A program made the position numbers and the translations under genes. Shown piece after piece: positions 4,585 to 50,888 of a stretch of 64,000 nt of DNA. This DNA is from Candidatus Omnitrophota bacterium (GTDB lineage: Bacteria > Omnitrophota > Gorgyraeia > Gygaellales > Profunditerraquicolaceae). How positions within the stretch are numbered: the first letter of the stretch is position 1; each line of letters starts with the position of its first letter. Under the pieces are notes generated by a model. It was not told the origin of the DNA. It did no database searches and saw only the letters and a list, made by a program, of their open reading frames with translations. The stretch lies in the NCBI GenBank assembly GCA_963805065.1, contig CAWDSS010000010.1, positions 600,359 to 664,358 on the forward strand, written 5' to 3'.

Positions 4585-5472
4585 TTACTGCTCAGACCAG
4601 GAAAGAATTTTATTTTCTTTCGGGCTTATCACTACTTGATAACGAACGCCGTCTTTGCCCTTAACCTGAGGGATAATATTAAGCCTTAAGTAGTCTGATT
4701 TTACGCTTAAAACACTCATCGCCGATAACAAATCCTGCTCCTGCCTTAAGCTTACGTCGGAGAAGTTCTTTAAATCCGCTAATATTGTTGCCTGGCTGGT
4801 AAATGCGCCGTCTTCTTTCCCCTGCTCAGCTTTATATTCCCGGCGAAAGCGCATAATTATATCTATAAGCTCATCATCCAGGCCCAACGCAGATAACACT
4901 TCGCTTGAGGCAGTATTAATATTTATTTTTCCCAGTCCATAGACGGTAATTGAATCTTTGATTTGATTGTATATGTCTTTGGTCATCCCCTCTACAAGCA
5001 AGAGCTCTTCTTTGCGTTTAAATGGCCGGCGAGTTGATTCTGTAATATTTTTTGCCAGGTCCTCATTTATACCTACCAGCCTTTTTAATACTTCACTAGA
5101 AACCAGGTTAATATTTATCAGCGCCCCTTCATCGACAAATTTCTCTTTTTCCCCGGCTGTTTTTCTTTCGCTAAGGTAATACTTGTAGCCTGGCTTATCA
5201 CAGAGCATTACTATATTTGCCTGCGTAAGCTCGTTATAAGAATCGTAATCCGGGGTAGCATCTTTAATTCTATCTTCAAATACGCGTAACATTGCTGCCT
5301 TTGCCATGGGTAGCGACATGGACTGGCGGATAAAAAAACTTGAGAATTTTATTTCCTGAAACACAAACCCTGCCAGAGCCAGACTTAAAATAGACAAAAT
5401 CGCAAGCGCCCAAAGGCTAACAATAAGAATGCTTCCCTGTTTATGCTGTGGGAATTGTAATAACCGTAACAT
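4585..5472 (-). CDS. gspK: GspK-like minor pseudopilin
   Basis: N-terminal QGSILIVSLWALAILSILSLA hydrophobic segment and the NINTASSEVLSALGL helix-hairpin-helix-like motif, both typical of T2SS protein K. It is the last gene of the pseudopilin run. Confidence 0.65.
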   Translation of the reverse strand: MLRLLQFPQHKQGSILIVSLWALAILSILSLALAGFVFQEIKFSSFFIRQSMSLPMAKAAMLRVFEDRIKDATPDYDSYNELTQANIVMLCDKPGYKYYLSERKTAGEKEKFVDEGALININLVSSEVLKRLVGINEDLAKNITESTRRPFKRKEELLLVEGMTKDIYNQIKDSITVYGLGKININTASSEVLSALGLDDELIDIIMRFRREYKAEQGKEDGAFTSQATILADLKNFSDVSLRQEQDLLSAMSVLSVKSDYLRLNIIPQVKGKDGVRYQVVISPKENKILSWSEQ

Positions 5473-6067
5473 AAGACTTTTCTTTTTGGGTTACATTAAC
5501 CTTGACTGCCAAGGGTAAAGTTGGTTGCTGTTGCCAATCTTTTTTCCAAACATATGCTTTTTGCTGAAGGTCATAAATTAGATATGCAAAACTAAAGTTA
5601 TCTAATCCTTCGGCAAAGGAAGAAAATTGCGGCTCTAATTGCAATTTACCCTTAGCTAAAATATCCGCCAATTTATCCTGGCTTCGATAAAGAGCCTTTT
5701 TATCAGCATCATACGAATAAATGACCCGGTAGATTTCAGAGTCAATTACCGAAGCAAGCTGCAGCTTAATGCCCGTGCCGCTAAAGGCAACATCATTAAA
5801 AAGAAATGCCTGCCTTAATTCCCGGTTTAGTTTTTCCATTTTTAATATAAACGCGCGCTGTTGTGCCTCGGAGTCTTTGGCGCGCCGCCATACGGTCATG
5901 CCGGAATTGAAAGTCGCATAAATAGCCACAGTTACGACAGCGAATATCGTAACTGTGATAAGCAGTTCGAGAAGCGTAAATGACCTCTGGGTTCTGGGTT
6001 CTGGGTTCTCGGTTCTCGGCAAGAACCTAGAACCTAAAACCCAAAACCTAGTTCTATTTTTGTTCAT
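5441..6067 (-). CDS. Minor pseudopilin (GspJ-like) with prepilin-type N-terminal motif
   Basis: FTLLELLITVTIFAVV class III signal motif. Start set at ATG 6067 (MNKNRTRF...). The leader is encoded by heptamer palindrome 5986-6051; an alternative TTG start sits in the palindrome loop. Confidence 0.55.
   Translation of the reverse strand: MNKNRTRFWVLGSRFLPRTENPEPRTQRSFTLLELLITVTIFAVVTVAIYATFNSGMTVWRRAKDSEAQQRAFILKMEKLNRELRQAFLFNDVAFSGTGIKLQLASVIDSEIYRVIYSYDADKKALYRSQDKLADILAKGKLQLEPQFSSFAEGLDNFSFAYLIYDLQQKAYVWKKDWQQQPTLPLAVKVNVTQKEKSYVTVITIPTA
5986..6051. repeat. Heptamer palindrome (GGGTTCT)n-loop-(AGAACCT)n
   Basis: tctgggttctgggttctgggttctcggttctcgg-caa-gaacctagaacctaaaacccaaaacctag; lies within the 5' coding end of pseudopilin 5441-6067. 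Confidence 0.9.
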
Positions 6068-6554
6068 TTTGTTTTTCTTCCTGTTTCCTTGGCAAATACG
6101 TCGAAACCCAAGCATCTTTAGTTCGTCCTGCCTCCGTCCAATCTACCCTAATACAAACTTCCACTAATTTTTCAGTTAAATAATCCGGGCTGGATACTTC
6201 TTTTACTTCGCTTAGCCAGTTAAAATTTCTTGGGCCAATTTTGCGGGTTCCCGAATCAGATTCTAACCCGGGAGTTAAACCTTTTCTTTCGTATGAAACC
6301 AACTCCAGCTCAGCCAGTTTGTCTCTAGCAAGCTGTGTCGCGCTAATATAATTTTGGCTTGCGTTTAGAGCGCCTGCAGAAATTATGTAAGACTGGCTGA
6401 CTATAACCAGCCCAAAGCCCAGTATGGCTACGCTTATCATTAGTTCAATAAGCGTAAATGACCTCTGGGTTTTGGGTTCTAGGTTTTGGGTTCTGGGCAA
6501 GAACCTAGAACCTAAAACCCAGAACCTAATATTATTCCCAGTTCGTAATATCAT
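6054..6554 (-). CDS. Minor pseudopilin (GspI/H-like) with prepilin-type N-terminal motif
   Basis: FTLIELMISVAILGFGLV motif. The leader MILRTGNNIRFWVLGSRFLPRTQNLEPKTQRS is encoded by heptamer palindrome 6464-6528. Confidence 0.55.
   Translation of the reverse strand: MILRTGNNIRFWVLGSRFLPRTQNLEPKTQRSFTLIELMISVAILGFGLVIVSQSYIISAGALNASQNYISATQLARDKLAELELVSYERKGLTPGLESDSGTRKIGPRNFNWLSEVKEVSSPDYLTEKLVEVCIRVDWTEAGRTKDAWVSTYLPRKQEEKQNEQK
6464..6528. repeat. Heptamer palindrome
   Basis: tctgggttttgggttctaggttttgggttctggg-caa-gaacctagaacctaaaacccagaaccta; lies within the 5' coding end of pseudopilin 6054-6554. Confidence 0.9.
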
Positions 6555-6930
6555 CAGCGGTGCCTGGCTGGCCGTCTTTTCCTACGCTGGAAAGATCGTA
6601 TCCATTTTGATTGTGCTCTCCGGGGAATTTATACAGATAGGCCTTGCCCCAAGGATCAAGCGGTTTTTTCTTTAGATATGGCCCCCGCCAGTTGTCTGCT
6701 GCAGCAGGCTTTGTAGTCAAATAGTCCAGGCTATCGGGAAAAGTCCCCATATCCATTTCATAAAGATCCAAAGCCAGTGCAATGCTTGAGCTGATGTCCG
6801 ACTTTGCAGCCTGAATCCTGGCTTGCTCGGAACGGCCGGCTAGCCTCGGCATAACCATAGCTGACAAAATACCGATAATGATTACTACTAACATCAGTTC
6901 GATTAATGTAAAGCCTCTTTTTGTTTTCAT
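6532..6930 (-). CDS. gspG: Major pseudopilin GspG-like
   Basis: MKTKRGFTLIELMLVVIIIGILSAMVMP plus C-terminal WRGPYL...DPWGKAYLY...GKDGQPGTADDI, a classic GspG pattern. Start trimmed to ATG 6930, preceded by ggagg. Confidence 0.85.
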   Translation of the reverse strand: MKTKRGFTLIELMLVVIIIGILSAMVMPRLAGRSEQARIQAAKSDISSSIALALDLYEMDMGTFPDSLDYLTTKPAAADNWRGPYLKKKPLDPWGKAYLYKFPGEHNQNGYDLSSVGKDGQPGTADDITNWE

Positions 6931-7003
6931 GGAATCCTCCCTGTTAATGTCAAATACCAAAGCACAAAATCCAAAATAAATTAAAATTTCAAAATCTAAA
7001 AAT

Positions 7004-7074
7004 AAAAGGGGACGTTTCTATTTTTCTTCTAATTTTAGTTTTAGGGAACGTTAAAAATAGAAACGTCCCCTTTT
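7004..7074. repeat. REP doublet
   Basis: Same arms; the spacer contains gggaacgtt. Confidence 0.9.
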
Positions 7075-7090
7075 ATTCAGAATGAACCTT

Positions 7091-7122
7091 AGTTTTGACT
7101 TTTACGTTTTGCGTTTTACGAC
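7091..7122. repeat. Second heptamer family (GTTTTRC/CTTTTAC)
   Basis: gttttga cttttac gttttgc gttttac; overlaps the pilO-like stop codon. Confidence 0.8.
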
Positions 7123-7655
7123 AGCGACACTGCCAGAATATTAACTTCTATTTTTAGCACTCCGGAAGTCTCATCTTTGCTGGATAAATTAAGCTTGTCA
7201 ATTTTAAAAAGTATATCGGAATTCTCTAAATTATAAATAAAATCAAAAAACTTCTTTACATCCGCTTCAGCGCGAAGTTGCACGTGAAAAGTCTTAGGCA
7301 TAGCCTGGGGATTAACAGAGGCTTGCGGATTCAGGTCCAAGATGGATAAACCCGACTGCCTAGCCAAGGCTTCGATTTTACTTAAGATTACGCCCATCTT
7401 TGCCTCGTCAGTTCCTTTGAGGCTTAAATAACGCTCTATCTGTTTTTGTGCTTTCAAAATATCTTCTTTTTGCTGCACGAGTTCCAGGTATTTACGGATG
7501 CCCAACTGCTGGCGCTCTATGTCAAGCTTAACAGAACTCATTTTTTCAAGCAGCGGATTAAAAATAATCAGTTTGAACATAAACGCCAGCGCCAAAGCTC
7601 CGACGGCAATGGCCAATATTTTTTCACGCTTTCCTAATTTTTTAATATTTAGCAT
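7116..7655 (-). CDS. PilO/GspM-like bitopic assembly protein
   Basis: 179 aa with an N-terminal TM helix (ILAIAVGALALAFMFKLIIF), a coiled coil and a small C-terminal domain. It sits between the PilM/N-like gene and gspG. Assignment rests on architecture and context only. Confidence 0.4.
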   Translation of the reverse strand: MLNIKKLGKREKILAIAVGALALAFMFKLIIFNPLLEKMSSVKLDIERQQLGIRKYLELVQQKEDILKAQKQIERYLSLKGTDEAKMGVILSKIEALARQSGLSILDLNPQASVNPQAMPKTFHVQLRAEADVKKFFDFIYNLENSDILFKIDKLNLSSKDETSGVLKIEVNILAVSLS

Positions 7656-7695
7656 AAAGGTCGACTATTTTACTTTTGGCTTTTAACTTTTTACT

Positions 7696-9096
7696 TTATT
7701 TTATGCCTATCTCAAAATCCACTATTTCTTTTTCTTTTACTTTGCGCCGGCGCATGTACTTGGCCTGGGAGTCCTTAAAAATGCTGGAATTATTCAGCGC
7801 ATTTACAAAGCTGGAGATATCGGGCATCTGTTGTGCATAACCGCGGATACTGAAGTTTTTCTGCCATTCCCAGGTAAAATTTGTCAGTGTAATATTATCG
7901 GGGCAAAGCCGCGTTAATTCATAAATGTAGGTAGCTACCGAATCCTTTGCTCCGTAATACTGTTTCACGATTGTTATCTTTTGCGCAACGTCATATAAGG
8001 CGCCTGTGTCTTTCTTTAATTGGGTGATCCTCTTTTCCAGCCCCTCTCGGTATGACTGCAGTTGATTTATCCTCACCAAAGCAAGCAGGCCTAATATAAT
8101 AAAAACATAAGTTATGCACGCTCCCATTGTAAGTATTTGCTGCATTTTGAGTTTTATCTCTTTCTTAATCTGCGCCTCCGGCAGCGTAAAATTAATATCC
8201 TCTTTTCTCCTCTGGTAACTAAACCCTAATACGGAGGCAAAGGACACGCCTTCTGCGTTCCTGACGGGGAATTTATCCAGTTCGCTGCATCTTGTAAACT
8301 CAAACTTCAGATTAAAATCTTTTTTCAGCCAATTTTCTATCGTAGATTCTAATTCCCGGGGGGCTCCGGTTATAAAAAGGCGGCTAGGCTTTGTATTGGG
8401 GATTTCGTTATTCAACACTACCAACGCCTGTTTTAATTCGGCACAGCATTTCTCTCTTTCTGTCTCCATTCTGAGCTGCTCGCAGCCTTGCGATATTATA
8501 ACAGTGGATCTGATATTATGATTATTCACCAATACGAGATCGCTAAAATTATAATCGATGTCAAACACAAGGAACGCCCCGTGCAAAAGCGATTTATCTT
8601 TTATGGCCTCATTAATATAATGGACTGTGCCTTGCGAACTCATCAGCATTGATTCAGGTAATATGTTTAGGGGGGTGAATGCGTTAAAAATGTGCCGCAG
8701 CATTTCGCGGTGTGCCACTGCCAAAAGAATATGGCTGTTACTTAAACCGTCAAACCCCAGGTTCTGGTGGCTCCAGATAATTTCCTCTTTTGGATAGGGG
8801 ACTTGCCTTATGACATGTAACCCCAGCATTGATTCGATTTCCGCAGGATCCCTCGACGGCAAATCCAGCTCTCTAACGGTGATTTTATTGCGGCTGACCA
8901 CAACCAAAACCTCTAAGCCCTTTTTTTGCCCTATCTGCTCAAAAATGTTCTTTAGGGAATTGGCAAGGTTATAATTATCTAACCCCGCGGGCTCAAGAAT
9001 TATCTTATCTACTGCGTTATGCGCAATGCCTACAGACGAAGAACATACGGCCTTAAGCCAACGCTCGGAAAACTCTATTACTACTTTTTTCTTCAT
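7696..9096 (-). CDS. PilM-PilN fusion / GspL-like assembly protein
   Basis: 466 aa: an N-terminal ~320-aa cytoplasmic actin-like region (PilM-like start MKKKVVIEFSERWLKAV), one TM helix (ILTMGACITYVFIILGLLALV) and a ~120-aa periplasmic tail. Located directly downstream of gspF. Confidence 0.5.
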   Translation of the reverse strand: MKKKVVIEFSERWLKAVCSSSVGIAHNAVDKIILEPAGLDNYNLANSLKNIFEQIGQKKGLEVLVVVSRNKITVRELDLPSRDPAEIESMLGLHVIRQVPYPKEEIIWSHQNLGFDGLSNSHILLAVAHREMLRHIFNAFTPLNILPESMLMSSQGTVHYINEAIKDKSLLHGAFLVFDIDYNFSDLVLVNNHNIRSTVIISQGCEQLRMETEREKCCAELKQALVVLNNEIPNTKPSRLFITGAPRELESTIENWLKKDFNLKFEFTRCSELDKFPVRNAEGVSFASVLGFSYQRRKEDINFTLPEAQIKKEIKLKMQQILTMGACITYVFIILGLLALVRINQLQSYREGLEKRITQLKKDTGALYDVAQKITIVKQYYGAKDSVATYIYELTRLCPDNITLTNFTWEWQKNFSIRGYAQQMPDISSFVNALNNSSIFKDSQAKYMRRRKVKEKEIVDFEIGIK

Positions 9097-9099
9097 TAT

Positions 9100-10314
9100 T
9101 TAACCGCCGACTAAAGTATCTATGGTGAAGATTGGCAGGAGCACAGCCATCACAATTCCACCGATAACTAACCCTAAGATAAGGATAATCGCCGGCTCAA
9201 GAAGGGAGCTGATAACCTTTAAATCGCCCTCGATTTCCTGTTCATAAGAATTTGCAATATCCTCCATAACGCTATCAAGCCTGCCGCCCTCTTCCCCCAC
9301 CCGGATCATCTGGACAACAAAATCCGGAAAAATTTTGAATTTGGAAAGAGCCTGAGAAAAAGAACTGCCTTCTTTGATGTCGCTGGAAACTTTGCCTAAT
9401 TGTTTTATCTGCTGCGGGTTTTCTATAATGGGCGCTGTAATTGATAGCGCGGATAATAGCGTCACTCCACTTTTTAATAAAAGCGCTGTACTCGTCGAGA
9501 AATTAGCTATTGCCTGTTTATACACAAGCGACTTTACCATGGGCAGGCGGTATTTTAACCACGAAAGAACGCTGCTGCCGTCTTTGCCTTTCTTTTGCAG
9601 TAAACCCAATATAAGCATGAAGGCTACGACTACCAATAACCAGTATTTTTTAAGGAATCCGGCGATAGCCAAAAGAATAACCGTGGGTAGCGGGAGTGCT
9701 GCCTGGAAATCTTCAAACATTCCGGCTAAGCGCGGCAAAACAAACGTAAGCATAACAAAAATTGTCCCAATGCCTACCACGATCATGAATATAGGATACG
9801 CCAATGCCTGACGCACTTTCGTACGCAACTCTTCAGTATGTTGTAGGCGCGTTAAAATCTGCTCCAGCGCATCTTTCAGCTGGCCCGAACCCTCTCCTGT
9901 GCGGATGATATTTATATAGAGAAGAGAAAAATATTGCGGGTATCGGGAGAGGCATTGTGAAAAAGTCATCCCCTCTTTAATGTTTTTGATTATGTCTTCT
10001 AATAGCAATTTTTCCGTATGGTCACTGCCGGACTGCTCAAGCAGCCTCAATGCAGAAAGCAATTCCACGCGGGATTTACTCAGGTTATACAATTTCTGGG
10101 TAAACAAAACTAATTTTTTATGCCCCCACTTACCCAGCTTTATGTTGGATGGCTTAATTTTTGTATCGGCCCTTGCTGCCCCTTCTTCCTCCACCGATAT
10201 AGCAATCATACCCTGATGCTCGAGATTTTCTATTACATGCTCGACAGTATCAGCCTCAAGCTTACCTTCTACTATCTCGTTTAAGCTTTTTTTTGCCTTG
10301 TATCTAAATAACAT
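9100..10314 (-). CDS. gspF: Type II secretion / type IV pilus platform protein (GspF/PilC family)
   Basis: 404 aa with two repeats of the T2SSF cytoplasmic domain plus three TM segments; motifs LSRYPQYFSLLYINIIRTGEGSGQL and FPDFVVQMIRVGEEGGRL. Confidence 0.9.
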   Translation of the reverse strand: MLFRYKAKKSLNEIVEGKLEADTVEHVIENLEHQGMIAISVEEEGAARADTKIKPSNIKLGKWGHKKLVLFTQKLYNLSKSRVELLSALRLLEQSGSDHTEKLLLEDIIKNIKEGMTFSQCLSRYPQYFSLLYINIIRTGEGSGQLKDALEQILTRLQHTEELRTKVRQALAYPIFMIVVGIGTIFVMLTFVLPRLAGMFEDFQAALPLPTVILLAIAGFLKKYWLLVVVAFMLILGLLQKKGKDGSSVLSWLKYRLPMVKSLVYKQAIANFSTSTALLLKSGVTLLSALSITAPIIENPQQIKQLGKVSSDIKEGSSFSQALSKFKIFPDFVVQMIRVGEEGGRLDSVMEDIANSYEQEIEGDLKVISSLLEPAIILILGLVIGGIVMAVLLPIFTIDTLVGG

Positions 10315-10321
10315 TGTTATC

Positions 10322-11935
10322 CTATATTTCTACTACGCGCATAATTTCTTCTTGGGTAGTAAGGCCTTCCTGCACTAACTGCATGCCTGCGTCTTTTAAG
10401 GAACGCATGCCCAATTGTTGCGCTTTTGTCCTAAGTTCCGATGCGGTCTTACGGGCAACAATCATCTGCCGGATCTCATCGTCAATTGCCAGTATTTCAA
10501 AGATTGCCCTTCTGCCTTTGTAACCCGTATCGCTGCAATTGTCGCAACCCTTGCCTTTGCATATGGGGCATAGGAGCCGTATCAGCCTTTGTGCGATTAA
10601 TATTTCCAGGGAAGACGCCAGCAAGAATGGCTCAATGCCCATATCCAATAGCCTGGCAATTCCCGCCGGAGCGTCATTGGTATGCAAGGTAGAAAATACC
10701 AAATGCCCGGTAAGGGCAGAGCGTATTGCCAGGTCTGCGGTTTCAGAATCGCGGATTTCTCCAATCATCATAATATCCGGGTCATGGCGTAGGACGCTGC
10801 GCAGGGTATTGGCAAATGTCAAGCCCACTTTGGGATTTACCTGAATCTGAGTTATTCCTTCTAAGGCATACTCCACAGGGTCCTCTATGCTGATAATCTT
10901 TACTTCCGGCTTATTCAGCCTGCTCAAAGAGGCATACAGGGTTGTGGTCTTTCCGCTTCCTGTTGGCCCTGTGAGCAGGATGATTCCATGGGGCTTTTGC
11001 AGAGCCTTTTTTATTTTTTGCAGGTCATTAGGGTCGAAACCTATGGCGTCCAAATCCAACAGAATCTGGGTAGGCAATATTCTAATCACCACATTTTCCC
11101 CGAAATATCCGGGGATTATAGAAATCCTTAAATCAACTTCCTGGCCGTCCTGAAGGCGTACTTTAGTCCGGCCGTCCTGGGGTATACGGTGCTCTACCAC
11201 ATCAAGGATGGACATAATTTTTATACGCGAGACAATTGCCGGCTCTATATAATATATATCCTCCGGCACCCTGAATTCGCGCAATATTCCGTCGATGCGG
11301 TAACGTAAATGCACCTTGTTCAGGTAGGGCTCGATATGGATATCGGTTGCGCGCAGGCGTATTGCCTCGGATAGAATCTGATTTACCAAATTTATAACTG
11401 ATGCCTCCTCCGCGCTTTTTTCAATATCTTCTACTTTTTCTTTGGCAATCAGGGTTTCTTTGTCATCTTTCTTGCCGGTGATAATTCTATCTACTGTCCC
11501 TGCCACCATGCCGTAGTGTTTATGTATTGCCTCCTCGATTTCAGCGCGCGTGCTTAAAACCCTTTGCACATTAAACCCTAAATCCAGCTTGATATTTTCC
11601 GCCAGCCACACATCCATGGGATTACTGACGGCAATGGTCAGCGTCTTATCTTTTAGCTCAAGGGGCATAAACCCGTAATGCTGCACGAATTTTACCGGCA
11701 CAGCCTTCACTGCTTCTTGAGAAATGGGCCTTTCTTTAAGGCGCGGGAAAAATGGCATGCGGAACTGCTCTGCCAAAACCTCCAGCAACTGCCCTTCCTT
11801 CAGGTGCCCTGCTTTTATGAGGGCCTTGCCTAAAATCTCTTCATTCTCCGGAGATTTCTTCAATGCCTCGCTTAACTGCTCTTTGGTAATAAATCCCTTG
11901 TTTATTAATATTTCTCCCAATAATTTTACAGCCAT
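10322..11935 (-). CDS. gspE: Type II secretion / type IV pilus assembly ATPase (GspE/PilB family)
   Basis: Walker A GPTGSGKTTTLYA, Asp and His boxes (IMMIGEIRD, TGHLVFSTLHTN), tetracysteine motif CPICKGKGCDNC, and an N-terminal GspE_N-like domain. Confidence 0.92.
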   Translation of the reverse strand: MAVKLLGEILINKGFITKEQLSEALKKSPENEEILGKALIKAGHLKEGQLLEVLAEQFRMPFFPRLKERPISQEAVKAVPVKFVQHYGFMPLELKDKTLTIAVSNPMDVWLAENIKLDLGFNVQRVLSTRAEIEEAIHKHYGMVAGTVDRIITGKKDDKETLIAKEKVEDIEKSAEEASVINLVNQILSEAIRLRATDIHIEPYLNKVHLRYRIDGILREFRVPEDIYYIEPAIVSRIKIMSILDVVEHRIPQDGRTKVRLQDGQEVDLRISIIPGYFGENVVIRILPTQILLDLDAIGFDPNDLQKIKKALQKPHGIILLTGPTGSGKTTTLYASLSRLNKPEVKIISIEDPVEYALEGITQIQVNPKVGLTFANTLRSVLRHDPDIMMIGEIRDSETADLAIRSALTGHLVFSTLHTNDAPAGIARLLDMGIEPFLLASSLEILIAQRLIRLLCPICKGKGCDNCSDTGYKGRRAIFEILAIDDEIRQMIVARKTASELRTKAQQLGMRSLKDAGMQLVQEGLTTQEEIMRVVEI

Positions 11936-11980: not shown

Positions 11981-12042
11981 AAAAGGGGACGTTTCTATTT
12001 TCCTTCTGCTTAAGAAACGTTAAAAATAGAAACGTCCCCTTT
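11981..12042. repeat. REP doublet
   Basis: Same arms; lies between the atpD stop and the gspE start. Confidence 0.9.
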
Positions 12043-12062
12043 ATTTTGCAGAATGAACCTTA

Positions 12063-12095
12063 GTTTTGCCTTTTTACTTTTGCGTTTTGAGTTTT
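12063..12095. repeat. Second heptamer family
   Basis: gttttgcctttttacttttgcgttttgag. Together with the preceding cagaatgaaccttag it duplicates the 7075-7122 segment. Confidence 0.8.
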
Positions 12096-12101
12096 TCAAG
12101 T

Positions 12102-13493
<1,392 letters not shown>

Positions 13494-14336: not shown

Positions 14337-14338
14337 TC

Positions 14339-15811: not shown

Positions 15812-15835
15812 TGTTTAGCTGTCAGTCGTCAGAAG

Positions 15836-15898
15836 AAAAGGGGACGTTTCTATTTTTAACGTTTCCCAACTAGAAGAAAAATAGAAACGTCCCCTTTT
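15836..15898. repeat. REP doublet
   Basis: Same arms. The spacer aacgtttcccaactagaag is the reverse complement of the spacer at 16826, so the element is in the opposite orientation. It lies between the atpF(b) and atpA genes. Confidence 0.9.
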
Positions 15899-15950
15899 CT
15901 TTGGGTCCCCTTTTCTTTGGGTTTTGTCATTTGCCATTACACTTTACACA

Positions 15951-43206: not shown

Positions 43207-43317
43207 TGGGTTCTAGGCTATGGTTTAGACTTCTGGGTTCTAGGTTCTCGGCTATGGCTTAGACTTCTGGGTTCTAGGTTCTCGTGCTAGAACCTAGAAC
43301 CTAAAACCTAGAACCTA
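43207..43317. repeat. Heptamer/27-mer structured array filling the secretin-HK spacer
   Basis: Two ggctatgg(y)ttagacttctgggttctaggttctcg modules plus a terminal palindrome arm. The array spans from the secretin stop codon to the HK start codon. Confidence 0.9.
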
Positions 43318-45867
43318 TATTTTGTTTTTATTCAGCTCCTCTATGTGCCTTAAGGCTTCCTTCGTCCAGAGGTCAGTCGGCTCGCCCAATTGCACGCGCT
43401 TCTTCCAGTATTCAATTGCCTTAGGCTTGTCGCCCTTTGCCTCATTTAACAAAGCCAGGTTAGAATAAGCTGCACGGCACTTTGGATCGAGGTCCAGGGT
43501 TTTTAAATACATCTTCTCTGCTTCATCAGCCAGGCCTGCGGTTTCCAGGATAATACCTAATTGGTTATATGCGCCGGCAAAAGTAGGGTCTGCGCCGGTA
43601 GCTTTTTGAAAATAATCTTTTGCCTCATTGAGGTTACCTGACTTTTGTAACTCCAGGCCCTTTTGATACAACTCTGCAGCTTTGAACCTGTCGGGAATTT
43701 TAACTTCTAAGGCCTTCTTTTCCTCTTTTATCTTTTTTCCGGCTTCTTCCTGTTCTTGCTTTCTCTGTTCTTCTTGTTTCCTTATCTCTTCTTGCTTCTT
43801 GGCTTCTGCTGCTTTTTTCGCCTCTTGGGCTTTTTTAATTTCTTCTTGCTGCCTGTTGGCTTCCTCGGTTTTCTTGGCTTCTTCCTGTTTTTTAAGCTCC
43901 TGGGCTTTTCTTATTTTTTCCTGCCTCTTAGCCTCTGCTTGTTTTCTTTCTTCCTCTGCCTGCTTTTTAATTCCTTCCTGCTGCGCCTTTTTTTGTGCTT
44001 CCTGCTCTTTCTTTTCTTGCTCCTTTTTGGCATTCTCGGCTTTTACGGCTGTTTCTAATTTTATGGCATCGTCTATTTTTTTAAATTCCGCGGCTTGCCT
44101 TTCTTGCTCTAATTTTTCCGATTCAGCCCGAATCAATTCTTCCTGCATTTTTCTTGCGGGAAACTCTAACGTATCGGCCATTTCCCATTCTCTGGCAATT
44201 TTTCTTTTAACGGTTTCAGGCATTATGTCTTTAGGGATTATTTTTTCCGGCTCATATCCGGGCAGCGTTGTATCGCCTTTTATTAAATGAGGCGTAACAA
44301 AAACAATCAGTTCTGTCCTTTGTTTGCTTTTGTCGCGGTTGCCGAAAAACGAACCTATTACCGGCAACCTGGATAGCCAGGGTAACCCCGTAATCGTATC
44401 CGTGTTTTGCTCCTGGATAAGGCCGGCAATCATAATCATTGTGCCGTCTTTAACCTTAACCACGGTCTCTGCCTGCGAGGTCGAGACAATGGGTATACGG
44501 CTGCCTAAAGAAGTTGTGATAGTTTCTTTTACGGAGCTCACCTCTGGTTTTATCTTCATGCTGATGTAACCATCTTTATTGATAGTGGGAATAATTTTTA
44601 ATTTCACGCCCACATCCACGAATTCAATTGACTCGGAGGTTACCGTAGTTGACTGCGCCTGGCTCAATGTCTGGGTCACATATGCCTCGCGCGTGCCCAC
44701 CATAATGCTTGCCTCTTCGTTATTAACCGCGGCAATCCTGGGCTGGGAGATAATTTTGGTGTCACCGTAGCTTTCCAAAAGCTTTATAACTACATTAAAT
44801 CTATTAGCGGGTACGCTGCCCACTGATATTTGCTGATACGTAGCCAAAGCCGTTGCCACCGGGAAATTTCCCAGGAAGTCTAATCCGGCAAGCCTGCTTT
44901 GACTAAACAGCTGTTCCCAATTAATGCCCCTGCTAAAATCATTACTCAGGGTTACTTCGGCAATTTCAGTTTCTAAAAACACTTCCCGCGTTTCTTCGTC
45001 AATCTCTTTTACCAGGCGGCTTATTTTTTCCATCTTCCTGGGCAGGTCAGATACAATGGCCTTGCCGTTACGCTCATCCACAATGACCTGGCCTGTCCCG
45101 GGAGTTATTGCCGCATTCAGTTGCGTTTTTGCATCAGCCGGCTTAATATAATTAAGATTGAAAACTGTGGTTTGTAACGGCTGGTCGAGTTCTAAAGCAG
45201 TTTTTTCCATGATCTCAATTTTTTCCGGTATGTCGATTAAAATTATTGTGCCGGATGCCTCATCAGCAATAATTTTTCCTATATCTGATTTCAGCTGGGA
45301 AAGCGCATTGAATACGTTTGCAGGCTTTGCGTAAGAAAGCTTGATAACCTTCATCCTCCTTTGTTCTATATAATCTTTGCCGTAGCGGACTTTATACTCC
45401 GCAGCGCTCATAATGTAATATATACCGCCTTGTTTCTCGATGGCGTAGCCTTGGGTGAGCACAATTATATCCAATACGTCTTTTAAGGTAACATTATTAA
45501 GGAATACGGTTATGCGGCCGGTTACATCTTTGCTGGGGACAATGGTTCTTCCTGTCTTTAAAGCAAGTATGCGCAGCAATTCTACTACTTCAATATTTTT
45601 TAAATCCAGGGAAATCTTCTCTTCTTTTTGCAGGGAAGGGGCCCCCTCTGCCAAAGCGCTAATACCAAAGCACAAATGACAAAATAAAATCAAAGCACAA
45701 ATGACAAAACTCAAAGAAAAGGGGACGTTTCTATTTTTCTGCTGATTAGGAGACGTTAAAAATAGAAACGTCCCCTTTTCTTTGGTTGTTGAATTACTTA
45801 GATTAAAGGATTTATTTAGACGTTGGGATTTTGTCATTTGGATTTTTAACTTCAATTTTTTCCTCAC
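43315..45867 (-). CDS. Secretin (GspD/PilQ/MshL family) fused to a Lys/Glu-rich coiled region and C-terminal TPR repeats
   Basis: Secretin C-domain (SQPRIAAVNNEEASIMVGT..., ITGLPWLSRLPVIGSFFG, ELIVFVTPHLI). A Lys/Glu-rich low-complexity stretch lies at roughly nt 43725-44145, followed by TPR repeats (AGAYNQLGIILE..., AAYSNLALLNE...). The start is uncertain because the N-terminal ~50 codons are repeat-derived. Confidence 0.8.
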   Translation of the reverse strand: MRKKLKLKIQMTKSQRLNKSFNLSNSTTKEKGTFLFLTSPNQQKNRNVPFSLSFVICALILFCHLCFGISALAEGAPSLQKEEKISLDLKNIEVVELLRILALKTGRTIVPSKDVTGRITVFLNNVTLKDVLDIIVLTQGYAIEKQGGIYYIMSAAEYKVRYGKDYIEQRRMKVIKLSYAKPANVFNALSQLKSDIGKIIADEASGTIILIDIPEKIEIMEKTALELDQPLQTTVFNLNYIKPADAKTQLNAAITPGTGQVIVDERNGKAIVSDLPRKMEKISRLVKEIDEETREVFLETEIAEVTLSNDFSRGINWEQLFSQSRLAGLDFLGNFPVATALATYQQISVGSVPANRFNVVIKLLESYGDTKIISQPRIAAVNNEEASIMVGTREAYVTQTLSQAQSTTVTSESIEFVDVGVKLKIIPTINKDGYISMKIKPEVSSVKETITTSLGSRIPIVSTSQAETVVKVKDGTMIMIAGLIQEQNTDTITGLPWLSRLPVIGSFFGNRDKSKQRTELIVFVTPHLIKGDTTLPGYEPEKIIPKDIMPETVKRKIAREWEMADTLEFPARKMQEELIRAESEKLEQERQAAEFKKIDDAIKLETAVKAENAKKEQEKKEQEAQKKAQQEGIKKQAEEERKQAEAKRQEKIRKAQELKKQEEAKKTEEANRQQEEIKKAQEAKKAAEAKKQEEIRKQEEQRKQEQEEAGKKIKEEKKALEVKIPDRFKAAELYQKGLELQKSGNLNEAKDYFQKATGADPTFAGAYNQLGIILETAGLADEAEKMYLKTLDLDPKCRAAYSNLALLNEAKGDKPKAIEYWKKRVQLGEPTDLWTKEALRHIEELNKNKI
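45660..45840. mobile_element. Composite MITE-like element (outer inverted repeats plus REP doublet core)
   Basis: The left end has ccaaagcacaaatgacaaa duplicated; the core is the REP doublet. The right flank ctttggttgttgaattacttagattaaaggatttatttagacgttgggattttgtcatttg is ~90% identical to 53113-53175. Confidence 0.65.
45717..45779. repeat. REP doublet
   Basis: Same arms; lies inside the tracked 5' extension of the secretin-TPR ORF. Confidence 0.9.
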
Positions 45868-47377
45868 TTTTATCAGACTCTGCTCCGCTAATTAATTGCG
45901 GGGTGAGAAAAATAACCAATTCTTTTCTGGGATTAGATTTCACCCGGCTTCCGAATAGGGCCCCTAAAATCGGAATCCTGGATAACACCGGCTCTCCGGT
46001 GATGGTATCCTGTTTTGTGTCTTGCATCAGCCCGGCAATCATAATCATTGTGCCGTCTTTGACCTTGACCACGGTTTCTGCCTGCGAGGTGTCTACAATG
46101 GGGATTTGGCTGCCGGCAGCTGTGGTGAGAACTGAAGCGACAGTACTTACCTCCGGTTTTATTTTCATGGTGATGTAACCGTCTTTACCGATGGTGGGGA
46201 CTACTTTTAATTTTACTCCCACATCAATAAATTGCACATTTTCTGAATTAACCGTGGTTGTCTGGGCCTGGCTTAAGGTTTCAGTTATATAGGCTTCTCT
46301 TGTCCCCACAAGTATTGTAGCCTCTTCTTTATTAACCGCGACTATGCGCGGAGAAGAAAGAATTTTTGTCTCACCATATTGCGCTAAAAAATTCATAACT
46401 GCAGTAAAGCTATTATGACCGACCGTCCCAATTGAAACCTGCTGATAGGAAGAAAGGGGTATCGTCCAATTTCCTACAAGGTCGAGGCCAGCCATCTTGG
46501 GATTGGTAAAAAGCTTTCCCCAGTTAATCCCACTAGACGTTGCATCAGTCAGGGTTACTTGTATAATTTCTCCGTTGATCAATACCTGGCGGCTTGCCTC
46601 ATCGAACTCTTTCATCAGCCTTGTGATTTTGGCTAATCTCTGCGGCAGGTCAGAGACAATTGCCTTACTGCTCCTATCGTCGATAATTACCTGGCCCACT
46701 CCCGGAGTAATCAATTCATTTAAATAGGATTTGATGTCGGCTGAGCGGGCGTAATTTATGTCAAACACAGCAGTCTGCAAAGGCTGGTCGAGCTCCTTTA
46801 TGGTCTGCTCAATCAGCGATAAAACAGGCGGGGAATCTGTTATGATAAGCGTCCCCGAAGGCTCATCAGAGATTATTTTTCCCGTTTGTGATTTTAGTGT
46901 CGAGATAATATTAGTTATGTTGGAGGGTTTGGCATAATTAAGCTTTATGGTTTTGGTTTCTTTTCTTTCGCCAAACTTGACGCCAAACGTTGCTTCATAC
47001 TCTTCCGGAGTCATTACCTTAATGAGATTACCTCTTTTCTCGTAGGCTAAATTCTGTTTCGTAATAATAACATCCAAGGCATCTTCAAAAGATAAATTAT
47101 TCACAAAAACACTGGCTACCCTGCCCTGGACACCGGGCGTCGTTATGATGGTCAATCCGCTTTTGGCAGAAAGCACTTTGAATAATTCGTTTATGTCTAC
47201 CCCTTGCAAATCCAGGGAAATTTTTTCTCCTTTTGCAAGTGGCACTTCTGGCGCGACAGTAGCTGGCATGGTGGCTGCCGGCTGGATTACAGTTGCAGTG
47301 GTAGAGGGAGTCTCTGCAGCATAACCAAAAACCGAAAACCAACAACCAATAACCAATAACAATATTTTTATCTTCAT
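45812..47377 (-). CDS. Secretin (GspD/PilQ/MshL family)
   Basis: Signal peptide MKIKILLLVIGCWFSVFGYA; N-domains; secretin domain SSPRIVAVNKEEATILVGT..., ITGEPVLSRIPILGALFG, ELVIFLTPQLI. Long stretches are near-identical to the downstream paralogue. Confidence 0.88.
   Translation of the reverse strand: MKIKILLLVIGCWFSVFGYAAETPSTTATVIQPAATMPATVAPEVPLAKGEKISLDLQGVDINELFKVLSAKSGLTIITTPGVQGRVASVFVNNLSFEDALDVIITKQNLAYEKRGNLIKVMTPEEYEATFGVKFGERKETKTIKLNYAKPSNITNIISTLKSQTGKIISDEPSGTLIITDSPPVLSLIEQTIKELDQPLQTAVFDINYARSADIKSYLNELITPGVGQVIIDDRSSKAIVSDLPQRLAKITRLMKEFDEASRQVLINGEIIQVTLTDATSSGINWGKLFTNPKMAGLDLVGNWTIPLSSYQQVSIGTVGHNSFTAVMNFLAQYGETKILSSPRIVAVNKEEATILVGTREAYITETLSQAQTTTVNSENVQFIDVGVKLKVVPTIGKDGYITMKIKPEVSTVASVLTTAAGSQIPIVDTSQAETVVKVKDGTMIMIAGLMQDTKQDTITGEPVLSRIPILGALFGSRVKSNPRKELVIFLTPQLISGAESDKSEEKIEVKNPNDKIPTSK
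47321..47360. repeat. AT-rich heptamer run (NNAACCN)x6 encoding a signal-peptide core
   Basis: ataacca aaaaccg aaaacca acaacca ataacca ataacaa, read on the minus strand as LLLVIGCWFSVFGY. Confidence 0.7.
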
Positions 47378-48025
47378 TTATCTTAACTCGTAATCCTTCA
47401 ATTTGCCTTCTCCCTCTATCTCTAAGATTACGGAGTTGTGTGTGACTTCTTTTACCTTAAGCTGCTGCTGGCCGAAAGTATCCCCCTTTTTTAAAAGGTA
47501 AGTCCGGTTTTCCTTGGAGTTTTCTACCATTGCCTCGGGATTCTTCGACCAGATAATTCCTACCAGTTTTACATCCTGAAATAATTGAGCGATATTAGGC
47601 GCCATTTCTGTCGGGCCGGTTGCCCTTATCTCAGGAGGCAAAAACATATTGCGCTTGCTAATTTCATTCAGGTATTCTTGTAGTCCTAAGAAGCTGTTTG
47701 CCTGCTGGATTACGCCCTTAGCAGGAGAGCCTCCTTTGCCAGAGGGGAAAATTAAATCCGCCCTGATTGCTCCTGGCCCGCTGATAAGGGCAATCAAAAA
47801 CAATAGAGTCAACAAGCCACAGACTACAAATAATCCCTTATTTATATTTTGCAGGTTCATCATGGCGCGAGGGTCAAACTTTCGGGGAAAAGAGAGGAAA
47901 CTAAAAGGCGTTCTGCCTTTTGGCTTCAAGCCTACTTTCTGAATAGGCTTAACACTAGATGTCCCTTCAATCAGTTTAAGTAATTTTTCGTCTGAGGTGC
48001 TTTTATCGGTCATTTTGTCTGTCAT
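47378..48025 (-). CDS. PilP/GspC-like secretin-associated membrane protein
   Basis: One TM helix (GLFVVCGLLTLLFLIALI) and a C-terminal beta domain VKLVGIIWSKNPEAMVENSKENRTYLLKKGDTFGQQQLKVKEVTHNSVILE, resembling the PilP/GspC HR-domain pattern. It abuts the secretin start. Confidence 0.45.
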   Translation of the reverse strand: MTDKMTDKSTSDEKLLKLIEGTSSVKPIQKVGLKPKGRTPFSFLSFPRKFDPRAMMNLQNINKGLFVVCGLLTLLFLIALISGPGAIRADLIFPSGKGGSPAKGVIQQANSFLGLQEYLNEISKRNMFLPPEIRATGPTEMAPNIAQLFQDVKLVGIIWSKNPEAMVENSKENRTYLLKKGDTFGQQQLKVKEVTHNSVILEIEGEGKLKDYELR

Positions 48026-48843
48026 ATAATACTCTTGGTTATTAATTCGCGTATTAGTGCCGCATCTACCACGGTCTTATCTTCCGCCAGAAGGGTGCGC
48101 AGCGCATTATGGCAGATTAAATTAATCCTCCTGGGGTAACCCTGGCTATAACGATAAATCTCGCTCACCGCCTCATCCGTAAATAATTTTAAGTCCGAAT
48201 TAAACCCTGCCTGCCTTAACCTAAACTCAATCATATCCCTGGTTTCCTGTTCATCAAAAGGGTTAAGCACGTATTTTAAGACTATCCGGTCGAAGAAATT
48301 TTTTATGCCTTTTATTACCGGTAATAATTCCATTTGTGACAACAAAACTAACTGTAATAATTTATATTCGTTGGTTTCATAATTTAATAAGACGCGTAAC
48401 ACCTCTAAAGACATAGGGTTAAGTTTTTGTGCCTCATCAATGACTAAAACCACGGTTTTATTTTCTTCCGCAGCTTTCTGGAATAAATATTTCTTAATTG
48501 CCTCCTTGTAATCAAGGATGTTGGCTCCCGCAGAAATTTCTTGTATATTAAAAGCTCTTACCAGCGACTCTAAAAATAGCTCTTCGCTTCCGGCAGTAGG
48601 GTCCATAATCATAAAAAAGAGGATATCCGGCCTTTCCTTTAACATCTGGAATAATTTTCTAGAAAGCGTGGTTTTTCCTGTGCCTACATCTCCTAATATA
48701 AGGCTTAAGCCCCTGCGCAGCCTAATTTCCACCAAAAGCCGCATCAGCGCTGCCCTGTGTTCATAGGAATCGTAAAAGAATTCCGGATCAGGGCTTGATG
48801 AAAAAGGTTCTTTTTTTAGTCCGAGGATCGTGTAATAGCTCAT
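48022..48843 (-). CDS. ExeA/GspA/MshM-like AAA ATPase
   Basis: N-terminal YYTILGLKKEPFSSSPDPEFFYDSYEHRAAL, Walker A GDVGTGKTTL, Walker B VVLVIDEAQ. Confidence 0.8.
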   Translation of the reverse strand: MSYYTILGLKKEPFSSSPDPEFFYDSYEHRAALMRLLVEIRLRRGLSLILGDVGTGKTTLSRKLFQMLKERPDILFFMIMDPTAGSEELFLESLVRAFNIQEISAGANILDYKEAIKKYLFQKAAEENKTVVLVIDEAQKLNPMSLEVLRVLLNYETNEYKLLQLVLLSQMELLPVIKGIKNFFDRIVLKYVLNPFDEQETRDMIEFRLRQAGFNSDLKLFTDEAVSEIYRYSQGYPRRINLICHNALRTLLAEDKTVVDAALIRELITKSII

Positions 48844-48844: not shown

Positions 48845-49099
48845 TTATTTCTTCCTCAGCATGTCGCGGATTAATTTTAGCGAATAGCCCTGATTTTTGA
48901 ACTTCGTCACAGCGTCAAGGCAGCGCCGGACTTCGCCTGCTTTGTATAGCCGGCTGTTACCGATTTTCTTTCGTACCATCAATAGCCCAAGGTTAGTGTA
49001 ATAATTAACGGTCTGGTAGGAAAGATTATGGATCCTGGTGATGTCCTGCGTAGAAATCAAACCTTTGCTCATTGAGCCTCCTTTTTGAAATTGAAGCAA
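48845..49099 (-). CDS. Small MerR/excisionase-type HTH DNA-binding protein
   Basis: 84 aa. ISTQDITRIHNLSYQTVNYYTNLGLL is a MerR-like HTH. It is the first gene of the secretin operon. Confidence 0.55.
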   Translation of the reverse strand: MLQFQKGGSMSKGLISTQDITRIHNLSYQTVNYYTNLGLLMVRKKIGNSRLYKAGEVRRCLDAVTKFKNQGYSLKLIRDMLRKK

Positions 49100-49225: not shown

Positions 49226-49254
49226 ATCATATATAAAATTATATGTTTTGTCAA
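49226..49254 (-). promoter_or_regulatory. Candidate sigma70-type promoter (TTGACA-17 nt-TATGAT) for the MerR-like/ExeA/secretin operon
   Basis: On the minus strand, TTGACA (49254-49249), a 17-nt spacer and TATGAT (49231-49226) lie in a 235-nt non-coding AT-rich region ~130 nt upstream of the first gene. The AT-rich context makes a chance match possible. Confidence 0.35.
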
Positions 49255-49400: not shown

Positions 49401-50888
49401 TTAGAATTTAAACTCCAGGGCTAATTCCACCTGGAAGGCGGGGTCGGCTGAACCATCCCCCCGCACAAAAGGAGTTAAGAGGCTGCCATCCGTATCGTCT
49501 CTTTCCTCTTGGTAGAACTCACCCGGCCAAAAATACCCTCCCAAGAGGCTAATCAGGATATTTTCGTTAATTTTGTAATCAATGAACAGGTCGGTTTCCC
49601 AGCCTAAATCGCGCGAAAGGTATTTTGCCTCTTCCTCATACATCCCGGCACCCCTTTCAAAGGAGCTTAAATAATATTCGTAAATACCCAAAGTCAATTT
49701 CTCGGTTGCAAGATAATCAAATCCTATGCAGGGCAGAATTATATTTTCAAAATCTCCCACTGAAAAGGTTTTTGGCCTGGGTACTCCGTAATTTAAACCG
49801 TACCCTCCTCCCATCGCCACAATGGGAAGCATGTCTGAATTATTGCTGCTGATTGAATCTCCTAAATTTTTATTCATCGGAGAATAGTAACTAAACGCCC
49901 TGTTCTTTGCGCTGGTTAAACTTGTGTCACGGCCCCTCACTGCATCCAAAGTTACTTTATTGCCGGAACAGGCTAAAACTTTCGCCGATGGAATAAACTT
50001 ACCTGTTTTATAGCTTAGCCCTGAGTATATTAAATAGCCCGTGTGAGAAATATCTTTAAATTCTGGATCGCTACTTTTAGCTCTGCCAAAATTATGCGCC
50101 GCTTCAAAATTAAAAGTCAGTTTGTTAATCGTTGTATCCCAGGCCAGCCCCACTGTGCCTAAAATATCCTGTTTTATGGGGGCGCTAAATAAGTTATCCC
50201 TTTTGTCGGGAGACGTGTAATCAACCAAAGCTCCGATATAGGGCTGTAATGAGTTTTCACCTATTTTAAATTTTGCATCCGTGGCAAAAAAATTAGCGGC
50301 GTTAGGCTCATAAACAATCCCTTGTTCTTTTTCCTGATGGATAGCCGGCCCCAGCCGGTATTTATGCTCGAGGTCAGGCCGGCAATAATAGAACCTCCAG
50401 CAAAAATCCTGCGATTCGCGCGATAAAGTAAACCCGATGTTTTCGTATCCGCCGTTTAGGCTAAAGCCGTTTCCTACTGTATAAGCATAAAGCCCTGCTT
50501 TAAATTTAAGGTAGTCAAATAACGGCGTCTCCATCCACAATTCCTCAAGCGCTGGCAAAAGTTCTTCATCGCGATACTTTTCAATAACTCCGCCTGAAGT
50601 CATGAGGGTATTATGTATAAAGAGAGGCGCGTCGTAATCATAGGGTCCGTTTCTTTCCAATTTTAAATAAAATTTGCTGGGGTTATTTTTTAAATCCAGA
50701 TTAAAACCTAAACTGTAGTCAATGCCTAGATACACCGTGGAATCGTCTTTGTTTTTATTATCCAGGCTGGTGACGTTCTTAAAAGTCATCAAATCATTCC
50801 TTAGGTAGGTGTTCATGATTAAGCTGAAATTATCTGTTTCTAACAAAGGCGCGGCATAACAGGCAGGAGCCCAAAAAAATAAGAGCAC
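49401..50888 (-). CDS. Putative outer-membrane beta-barrel protein (porin-like)
   Basis: 495 aa with a signal-like N-terminus (LLFFWAPACYA), alternating amphipathic beta-strand pattern rich in Y/G/N/D, and a C-terminal ...LALEFKF aromatic terminus typical of OMPs. Family not identified. Confidence 0.4.
   Translation of the reverse strand: MLLFFWAPACYAAPLLETDNFSLIMNTYLRNDLMTFKNVTSLDNKNKDDSTVYLGIDYSLGFNLDLKNNPSKFYLKLERNGPYDYDAPLFIHNTLMTSGGVIEKYRDEELLPALEELWMETPLFDYLKFKAGLYAYTVGNGFSLNGGYENIGFTLSRESQDFCWRFYYCRPDLEHKYRLGPAIHQEKEQGIVYEPNAANFFATDAKFKIGENSLQPYIGALVDYTSPDKRDNLFSAPIKQDILGTVGLAWDTTINKLTFNFEAAHNFGRAKSSDPEFKDISHTGYLIYSGLSYKTGKFIPSAKVLACSGNKVTLDAVRGRDTSLTSAKNRAFSYYSPMNKNLGDSISSNNSDMLPIVAMGGGYGLNYGVPRPKTFSVGDFENIILPCIGFDYLATEKLTLGIYEYYLSSFERGAGMYEEEAKYLSRDLGWETDLFIDYKINENILISLLGGYFWPGEFYQEERDDTDGSLLTPFVRGDGSADPAFQVELALEFKF

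Follow-up and report, generated by a model that had tools for sequence, protein, structure and literature searches.

To our knowledge, all characterised secretins have been described as rings of a single protein species, and pilotins as separate proteins. Several secretins work with a partner built of tetratricopeptide repeats (TPR). In the mannose-sensitive haemagglutinin (MSHA) pilus of Vibrio a secretin (MshL), a small cytoplasmic AAA_22 ATPase (MshM) and a TPR protein (MshN) occupy one neighbourhood, and PilQ has the TPR partners PilF, PilW and Tgl. The clearest mechanistic precedent for a secretin-associated TPR is TadD: its TPR groove holds the four C-terminal residues of RcpA, the Tad secretin, and this contact is essential for assembly of the secretin (PMC10499894). 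Here we describe a locus of a Candidatus Omnitrophota bacterium in which two diverged secretin genes, sec1 and sec2, stand in tandem, and in which the second continues into a Lys/Glu-rich linker and a C-terminal TPR domain. The window, that is the whole stretch of DNA that was analysed, comprises 64,000 nt (assembly GCA_963805065.1, contig CAWDSS010000010.1, positions 600,359 to 664,358 of the forward strand), and coordinates without a locus name are positions within it.

Judged from comparison with its relatives, the arrangement is real, old and found throughout one lineage of Omnitrophota. Its proteins are already in databases under generic names, while the arrangement is not described in the literature that we searched, which likewise yielded no report of pilotin fusions or mixed secretin rings. 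For Omnitrophota, PMC10066038 reports that several type IV filament systems are common and that type IVa pilus (T4aP) genes lie beside unusual (type 2/3) F-type ATPases and giant open reading frames (ORFs), and 10.1101/2023.11.21.568195 places type II secretion system (T2SS)-like loci, including gspD, beside giant genes. The word 'secretin' is absent from these two sources and from a complete-genome preprint (10.64898/2026.06.07.730766), and the available portions of all three contain no mention that we noticed of a duplicated secretin or a TPR fusion. The present analysis refines the published association between T2SS-like loci and giant genes by showing an unusual outer-membrane part. A lineage of an uncultivated, probably host-dependent phylum retains two diverged secretins side by side, and this provides a natural system for asking how TPR partners aid secretin assembly and whether mixed rings exist.

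Two secretins and a helix-TPR tail

The ORFs of the window were listed, and Pfam, NCBIfam, BLASTP, AlphaFold2 (AF2) and Foldseek were applied to the encoded proteins. Both genes lie on the minus strand, sec1 at 45812..47377 (521 aa) and sec2 at 43315..45867, where the longest ORF begins with GTG and encodes 850 aa. The probable start of sec2 is an ATG at 45837 that overlaps the end of sec1, and a database copy of 846 aa (P0001) is 100% identical to sec2. The two proteins align over 454 positions with 254 identities (56%, BLASTP E = 0.0), and both carry the motifs IPIV(D/S)TSQAETVVKVKDGTMIMIAGL and ELDQPLQT(A/T)VF(D/N)(I/L)NY that an earlier note on this DNA had quoted. The Pfam Secretin family matches sec1 with 155.4 bits and sec2 with 165 bits (threshold 27.5), and Secretin_N scores 82 bits in each, in two stretches (threshold 28.2). 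The STN/N0 hidden Markov models (HMMs) fall slightly below threshold in both, at 25 where 28.4 is needed. TPR_1, TPR_2 and related families match sec2 only, at residues 730-820 of the 850-aa ORF. sec1 and sec2 are full-length secretins; the ORF list, BLASTP and Pfam agree on the tandem paralogs that the earlier note had placed here.

The sec1 protein consists of an SPI-type signal peptide, an N0/STN domain, two Secretin_N stretches and the Secretin domain, followed by a C-terminal extension of at most about 25 aa. In sec2 the signal peptide is predicted to be cut after ...GISALA and before EG, so that the mature protein would begin at about nt 45648. An AF2 model of sec2, built with 47 homologues as input and numbered on a 795-aa version beginning at nt 45702, has a mean predicted local distance difference test score (pLDDT) of 75.7. 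On the minus strand throughout, it places an N0 domain at residues 29-107 (45382..45618; pLDDT ~90, with a Foldseek match to XcpQ N0-N1 beside the sub-threshold STN/N0 HMM) and the ring-building domains N1 (116-172) and N3 (177-234) at 45001..45357, which carry the Secretin_N match. The beta-barrel/gate domain follows at residues 239-475 (44278..44988), where the Secretin match is accompanied by sequence matches to PilQ and GspD and by fold matches to PulD, InvG and PilQ. Beyond it come long helices at residues 496-662, partly of low confidence, and seven TPR helices at residues 671-794 with pLDDT above 90.

A Lys/Glu-rich helix (AF2 model) and a TPR domain (Pfam and AF2 model) do follow the second secretin, as the earlier note had it. 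Its measurements needed correction: sec2 does continue past the secretin domain, by ~314-320 aa instead of ~270 aa, and the low-complexity helix that precedes the TPR, put at ~140 aa and nt ~43725-44145, has a Lys/Glu core of 114 aa at nt 43708-44049. This core belongs to a mostly helical linker of 186 aa (43702..44259, minus strand), delimited by composition, charge-pair analysis and the AF2 model. It is 57% E/K/R and 7% hydrophobic, and its opposite-charge pairs number 41 at i/i+3 and 30 at i/i+4, compared with 18±3.3 each in shuffled sequences. AF2 predicts linker helices at residues 496-567, 581-602 and 618-662, some of them at low pLDDT. The composition and charge pairing fit a predicted single alpha-helix (SAH) of ~17 nm for the core and up to ~28 nm for the whole linker. 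ER/K single alpha-helices and TolA domain II share the high E/K/R content, the i/i+3 and i/i+4 pairs, the scarcity of hydrophobic residues and the continuous predicted helix; the linker differs from them in being joined to an outer-membrane beta-barrel protein and in a length that varies greatly between orthologues. A coiled coil was rejected for the core, which has 7% hydrophobic residues and lacks a heptad pattern.

The C-terminal TPR module of sec2 (128 aa, 43318..43701, minus strand; Pfam TPR families and AF2) comprises three TPR repeats and a cap helix with the signature YWKKRVQLGEPTDLWT, and lacks any signal peptide of its own. When the last 133 residues were modelled alone, AF2 returned the same three repeats and capping helix at pLDDT 96. 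The best matches by sequence and fold are designed CTPR proteins, OGT and the peptide-clamping three-TPR domains of RPAP3/SGT, and the assignment of a specific family was abandoned because only generic matches were obtained. The modelled fold is that of a small TPR domain of peptide-binding type, which is not demonstrably a member of a pilotin family. A self-piloting lipid anchor (a liposecretin) was also rejected: Cys12 of the sec1 signal peptide and the Cys residues near the sec2 cleavage site are unconserved across orthologues and unfit for a lipobox.

Neither secretin falls into a curated secretin subfamily. The NCBIfam GspD model (TIGR02517) gives 226.6 bits for sec1 and 213.5 bits for sec2 against a cut-off of 351.35, the PilQ model (TIGR02515) 226.6 and 210 bits against 284.35, and the MshL model (TIGR02519) 176.9 and 179.1 bits against 250.2. 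Pfam detects no AMIN domain in either protein, and neither has an S-domain, the barrel being followed by ~25 unconserved residues in sec1 and by the helix-TPR tail in sec2. Among solved structures the barrel is closest by sequence to PilQ of M. xanthus, Neisseria and P. aeruginosa and then to GspD, and the whole core is closest by fold to PulD (the top Foldseek match), InvG and V. cholerae PilQ. On these scores both are best filed as secretins outside any established subfamily.

The comparison with described systems is one of partial likenesses. With the MSHA pilus the locus has in common the component types of one neighbourhood (a secretin, a small AAA_22 ATPase and a TPR protein), a platform ATPase with an MshEN domain elsewhere in the window, GGDEF regulators nearby, and the name MshL that JGI gives to some homologues. 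It differs in gene order, in having two secretins where MSHA has one, and in a TPR that is fused through a long helix. Membership in the MSHA family, with which the earlier note had compared the locus, is not supported, both secretins scoring under the curated MshL cut-off. An ExeA/MshM-like ATPase is present upstream in the same operon (273 aa, 48022..48843, minus strand; Pfam AAA_22 67.7 bits, TIGR03015 183 bits, sub-cut-off). PilQ with PilF, PilW or Tgl resembles the locus in tying a TPR partner to the secretin and in the PilP/GspC-like gene upstream, whereas here the AMIN domain is missing, the score is sub-cut-off, and the TPR part has three repeats, is no lipoprotein and is covalently attached. 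T2SS GspD shares the N0-N1-N3 plus barrel layout and has its counterparts of the GspC-like and ExeA-like genes in the operon; in the sec2 model, however, there are three N domains and not four, the S-domain is absent, and the ExeA-like protein here lacks a peptidoglycan-binding domain. In the case of RcpA and TadD, the TPR partner is a separate lipoprotein of five TPRs whose copies encircle the barrel as a ring, RcpA comes up as no more than a distant hit, and sec1 has no C-terminal tail motif conserved across orthologues. The sec1 tail was considered as a TPR ligand and set aside: it is kept within a subclade only, where it overlaps the Shine-Dalgarno sequence and start of sec2, and it is not conserved in the window. 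Automated JGI names for some homologues include 'secretin / PilF' and 'secretin / TadD'.

Conservation, age and origin of the arrangement

A homologue search over ~5.8 billion proteins returned more than 1000 relatives, and architecture was judged on the best 120 clusters. The secretin with a C-terminal TPR fusion occurs in 103 of these 120. Nearly all the named fusion clusters are metagenome-assembled genomes of Candidatus Omnitrophota/Omnitrophica, and stray labels among them (such as Parcubacteria and Methanoperedens) probably reflect mistakes in binning. One genome per GTDB species was scanned, with ORF calling and BLAST against the window proteins, and 30 loci with a related secretin emerged. 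Eleven complete loci from different species (L001, L002, L004-L009, L011, L027 and L029) preserve the order MerR, AAA_22 ATPase, GspC-like protein, short secretin, secretin-TPR, histidine kinase, LuxR-type response regulator and DUF2341, with short secretins of about 500-526 aa and secretin-TPR proteins of 679-944 aa. The conservation that the earlier note wished to see checked thus extends to the fusion and to the tandem pair. Across the 30 loci the short secretin accompanies every TPR-secretin that has upstream DNA. A twelfth locus with the conserved order, L003, has an intact sec2-TPR and a sec1 split into ORFs of 190 and 260 aa (2986-4352), either by a sequencing frameshift or as a rare loss of the short paralog.

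Three genes precede the secretins in this operon, all on the minus strand of the window. The first is a MerR-family regulator (48845..49099; Pfam and conserved order). The AAA_22 ATPase is 59-78% identical to its counterparts in the related loci by BLAST. Between it and sec1 lies a membrane-anchored GspC/PilP-like protein of 215 aa (47378..48025), whose match to Pfam T2SSC is sub-threshold (E = 0.0016) and whose position is kept in all orthologous loci; it is presumed to be the inner-membrane partner of the secretin N0 domains.

The age of the duplication was approached with a neighbour-joining tree of 42 secretin cores (200 bootstraps). The short copies form one clade and the TPR-bearing copies another, each with 100% bootstrap support; 68% of bootstraps unite the two clades, which branch internally in the same pattern, and the single-secretin Omnitrophota fall outside both. 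Two clades of full support with matching topologies indicate one duplication, an old one, and one fusion in the ancestor of this lineage, with co-divergence afterwards. Within each clade the identity per domain ranges from 0.66 to 0.79, both paralogs being equally constrained. At the 34 sites with paralog-specific fixed differences, single-copy relatives match sec2 at 17, sec1 at 13 and neither at 4. The equal constraint and the 17:13 split of the ancestral-like state argue that both copies are specialised and that neither is decaying. Independent secretin duplications were seen in other Omnitrophota: L013 has a tandem pair without a TPR fusion (9899-13675), and L016 has two secretins (6424-8157 and 9893-11629), each with its own MerR gene.

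Single-secretin Omnitrophota also bear on the origin of the tail. Directly downstream of their secretin genes stand genes for small TPR proteins, including a 123-aa lipoprotein (L015, L016), and others for proteins in which a signal peptide or an anchor in the membrane is followed by a long coiled coil and, at the C-terminus, by a TPR. One of them, in L020 (11628-12521), is 46% identical to the fused module, with the cap motif YWRKRAGLGSPDDPWT where sec2 has its own, and the two have the signature YWxKR...LGxPxDxWT in common. The helix-TPR genes beside single secretins and the likeness of the L020 protein argue that the sec2 tail is a fused accessory gene, and by the same comparison its linker helix came with that gene and did not arise de novo as a spacer. 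The earlier note's idea that a normally separate TPR neighbour had been fused to a secretin is therefore right in spirit, since the sister single-secretin loci do have separate helix-TPR genes, and not supported as to the MSHA family. The fusion in turn serves as 'Rosetta-stone' evidence that the helix-TPR proteins beside single secretins in other Omnitrophota act on the secretin.

Across the 103 fusions the TPR module is ~125 aa long and sits at the extreme C-terminus, with a few longer outliers, whereas the linker ranges from 36 to 578 aa (median 80), that of the window belonging to the upper tail; orthologues with short linkers are not E/K-rich. A molecular ruler of fixed length was rejected on this range. 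Free-standing homologues with the same signature have ordinary SPI-type signal peptides and no lipobox. Two of them, periplasmic proteins of other Omnitrophota (L038, 6001-6843; L039, 648-1394), stand in a conserved housekeeping context of tpiA, secG, TPR, polA and coaE, and free-standing homologues were therefore dismissed as secretin neighbours, both retrieved contexts being secG-TPR-polA.

Possible roles of the pair and its tail

On balance we favour a reading in which sec1 and sec2 form the outer-membrane channel of a type IV pilus (T4P)/T2SS-like machine, with the sec2 tail as its tethered accessory TPR, an aid to channel assembly, stabilisation or docking. The two secretins would be inherited and expressed together and would jointly supply the channel. 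The tail would derive from an accessory periplasmic protein that lost its own targeting signal and became covalently joined to the secretin C-terminus. In solved secretins the C-terminus lies at the outer-membrane end of the barrel. The module of three repeats and a cap is of the kind that clamps short extended peptides, and the charged single helix could place it at any distance from the ring between a few nm and ~17-28 nm. By analogy with the TPR secretin partners PilF, PilW, Tgl, TadD and MshN, its targets might be neighbouring subunits or another envelope component, and the tail is most likely a tethered assembly, stabilisation or docking factor.

The presumed partner machine is a cluster of T4P/T2SS-like platform and pseudopilin genes at 4585..11935 (minus strand), which encodes a GspE-type ATPase with MshEN, GspF, PilM-PilN-like and GspM-like proteins and GspJ/K-like N-methyl proteins (Pfam, NCBIfam). 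It lies ~32 kb (about 31-39 kb) from the secretin operon, and no secretin gene was found within it. Within the 64-kb window we infer the link between these distant genes and the secretins from that lack, a point that weighs against the channel with a tethered accessory TPR. So do several other points. The linker length is not conserved, which counts against a precise ruler, and parts of the linker helix were modelled at pLDDT below 50. PilF, PilW and TadD do not appear among the best 50 Foldseek matches of the TPR module; Tgl, its top NCBIfam TPR match, reaches 35.9 bits against a cut-off of 225; and the module has three repeats versus five to six in known TPR pilotins and is no lipoprotein. 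The secG/polA context of the free-standing homologues, finally, argues that the TPR module is not dedicated to secretins.

It is possible, though we hold it tentatively, that sec1 and sec2 alternate in a single hetero-oligomeric ring, for example as 6+6 or 7+7 subunits. The tail would then be carried by every second subunit, giving a periplasmic TPR crown at half occupancy, and two kinds of N0 domain would face the inner-membrane platform. We infer any such co-assembly from the way in which the genes travel together. Most orthologous pairs have GAGG, a Shine-Dalgarno sequence for sec2, ahead of a sec2 ATG that stands 11 nt upstream of the sec1 stop codon, which indicates translational coupling there; all 11 complete loci inherit the two genes together, and the trees of the two agree; and the operon has one GspC/PilP-like partner only. 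Translational coupling, strict co-inheritance and the single GspC-like partner point weakly to a joint function. The double-ring channel, the two alternative exits and the exit dimensioned for the giant protein that the earlier note raised beside a hetero-oligomer are, like it, speculative. The barrel is the domain in which the paralogs are most alike (0.57 between clades, 0.69 in the source genome of the window), and a 2:1 stoichiometry has a precedent in the tetradecameric PilQ with its TsaP heptamer (6ve2). Such a channel would be the first to consist of two different secretin subunits, and it would have a built-in match between a 12-14-fold ring and a platform of lower symmetry, or a hold on a giant surface protein. 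The literature searches, however, yielded no case of two secretin paralogs in one ring. The paralogs of one genome are more similar to each other than to those of other genomes in the window genome only and not in the other 11, so there is no general co-evolution signal. Gene conversion or co-evolution as a sign of hetero-oligomers was rejected on the ground that the excess similarity is limited to the window genome and third codon positions are not homogenised. In the source genome a strong hairpin between the genes could also uncouple their expression.

We rate as rather unlikely a pair of separate homo-oligomeric channels, one serving, for instance, a pilus fibre and the other the secretion or display of a giant protein, or each serving a different inner-membrane machine. 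N0 docks the inner-membrane platform in known secretin systems. The fixed differences between the paralogs are about twice as dense in this domain, which holds 11 of the 34 within 76 residues, and this leans towards separate channels. The independent duplications in L013 and L016 lean the same way, as do the multiple type IV filament systems of Omnitrophota reported in PMC10066038. Against them, the window shows a single gene each for a GspC-like and an ExeA-like protein and a single platform cluster, translational coupling and strict tandem conservation suit a single complex better, and the sequence says nothing on pore size or cargo. The N0 divergence and the lack of a general co-evolution signal nevertheless leave room for separate channels.

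An improbable alternative for the tail is that it serves as an envelope tether or spacer, spanning the periplasm like TolA domain II or Lpp, and not as an assembly factor; the TPR would then hold the channel in place by attaching it either to the inner membrane or to a protein, be it peptidoglycan-associated or the giant one. A weak, compositional match of the Lys/Glu core to full-length TolA (NCBIfam), the single-alpha-helix features with their predicted ~17-28 nm, and the inner-membrane-anchored helix-TPR proteins that are the unfused relatives of the tail would be in keeping with a tether. However, the linker varies 16-fold in length, its median of 80 aa (~12 nm or less) falls short of the periplasm in most species, and Pfam finds no peptidoglycan-binding domain.

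Mis-assembly, a frameshift or a gene-calling merger carries virtually no weight as an explanation of the pair and the fusion, in view of the DNA divergence, the ORF continuity and the recurrence in independent assemblies. The sec2 ORF runs without interruption, and hence no frameshift splits off the TPR part. The paralogs are ~60% identical in DNA, their longest exact match is 29 nt and their third codon positions agree at 0.50 of identical residues, and the pair is therefore not an assembly duplication; the Lys/Glu-coding DNA of sec2 contains weak repeats only (Tandem Repeats Finder). The fusion recurs in more than 100 independent clusters and the gene order in 11 syntenic loci, all from assemblies unrelated to one another. 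The artefact by which the earlier note's proposal might have fallen is excluded on these grounds.

The gene junction, palindromic elements and neighbouring genes

The window keeps the overlapping ATG at 45837, but a 65-nt palindrome resembling repetitive extragenic palindromes (REP) has been inserted just downstream (45716..45780, no strand assigned). It has 23-nt arms and a 19-nt loop, and the sec2 reading frame passes through it within the n-region of the signal peptide. The RNA of this 116-nt junction folds at -43.8 kcal/mol (z = -8) with the hairpin dominant. Junction hairpins were also seen in 5 of the 11 orthologous loci (L007, 4339-4408; L002, 11490-11560; L008, 11403-11452; L009, 3196-3260; L029, 11412-11482). 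In the window and in L007, the latter by comparison with its sister L011, the element is translated as an insert of ~23 aa in the signal-peptide n-region. These hairpins may be tolerated REP insertions or may tune the expression of sec2.

A dedicated regulatory role for the window's junction hairpin was set aside as unproven, the hairpin being one member of a REP-like family that is genome-wide and numbers 11 copies in the 64 kb, where 0 are expected by chance. Members have invariant 23-nt arms, GAAAAGGGGACGTTTCTATTTTT, and a loop of ~19 nt in two orientations, and are almost all intergenic or at gene 3' ends. Hairpins of ~65 nt each start at 2692, 7003, 11980, 15835, 16825, 19321, 45716, 49102, 53049 and 60327. 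Single arms of the family in inverted orientation, at 3717 (plus) and 4434 (minus), flank an IS200-like Y1 transposase ORF (3659-4396, plus strand; Pfam Y1_Tnp 66.7 bits). A REP-associated tyrosine transposase (RAYT), by which the elements would be spread, is expected to show this layout.

At its upstream end the operon has a promoter-like site at 49226-49254, which precedes the MerR gene and agrees with the consensus at 11 of 12 positions; one REP-like copy lies between this site and the MerR start codon. At the downstream end, a spacer of 109 nt (43207-43317), built of short repeats, separates the stop of sec2 from the start of the histidine-kinase gene. It holds GGTTCTA heptamers that form a perfect 13-bp hairpin, and a 34-nt direct repeat in 2.4 copies directly upstream of the kinase ATG. 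The spacer may act as a terminator, or the LuxR-type regulator may have its operator there.

Beyond the kinase and regulator, the gene order of the window runs on from DUF2341 into a giant ORF. The DUF2341 protein (38681-40099, minus strand) precedes this ORF, which encodes 6162 aa (20176-38664, minus strand), with a hydrophobic anchor at the N-terminus and numerous repeats of Kelch-like and Ig-like type. Related loci keep the order of secretins, histidine kinase, response regulator and DUF2341, several of them with DUF2341 proteins of 800-960 aa. An F-type ATPase-like cluster (alpha, gamma, beta and a b/delta fusion; 12102-16673, minus strand) adjoins the T4P/T2SS-like genes. The window matches both published layouts, with T4P/T2SS-like genes beside an F-type ATPase and a giant gene near a T2SS-like locus. 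GGDEF response regulators are also encoded in the window. Upstream of the operon, both on the minus strand, are genes for a 495-aa protein with an Alginate_exp-like beta-barrel match (49401-50888) and for a 605-aa protein whose N-terminus is a multi-pass membrane region and whose C-terminus carries TPR repeats (51054-52871).

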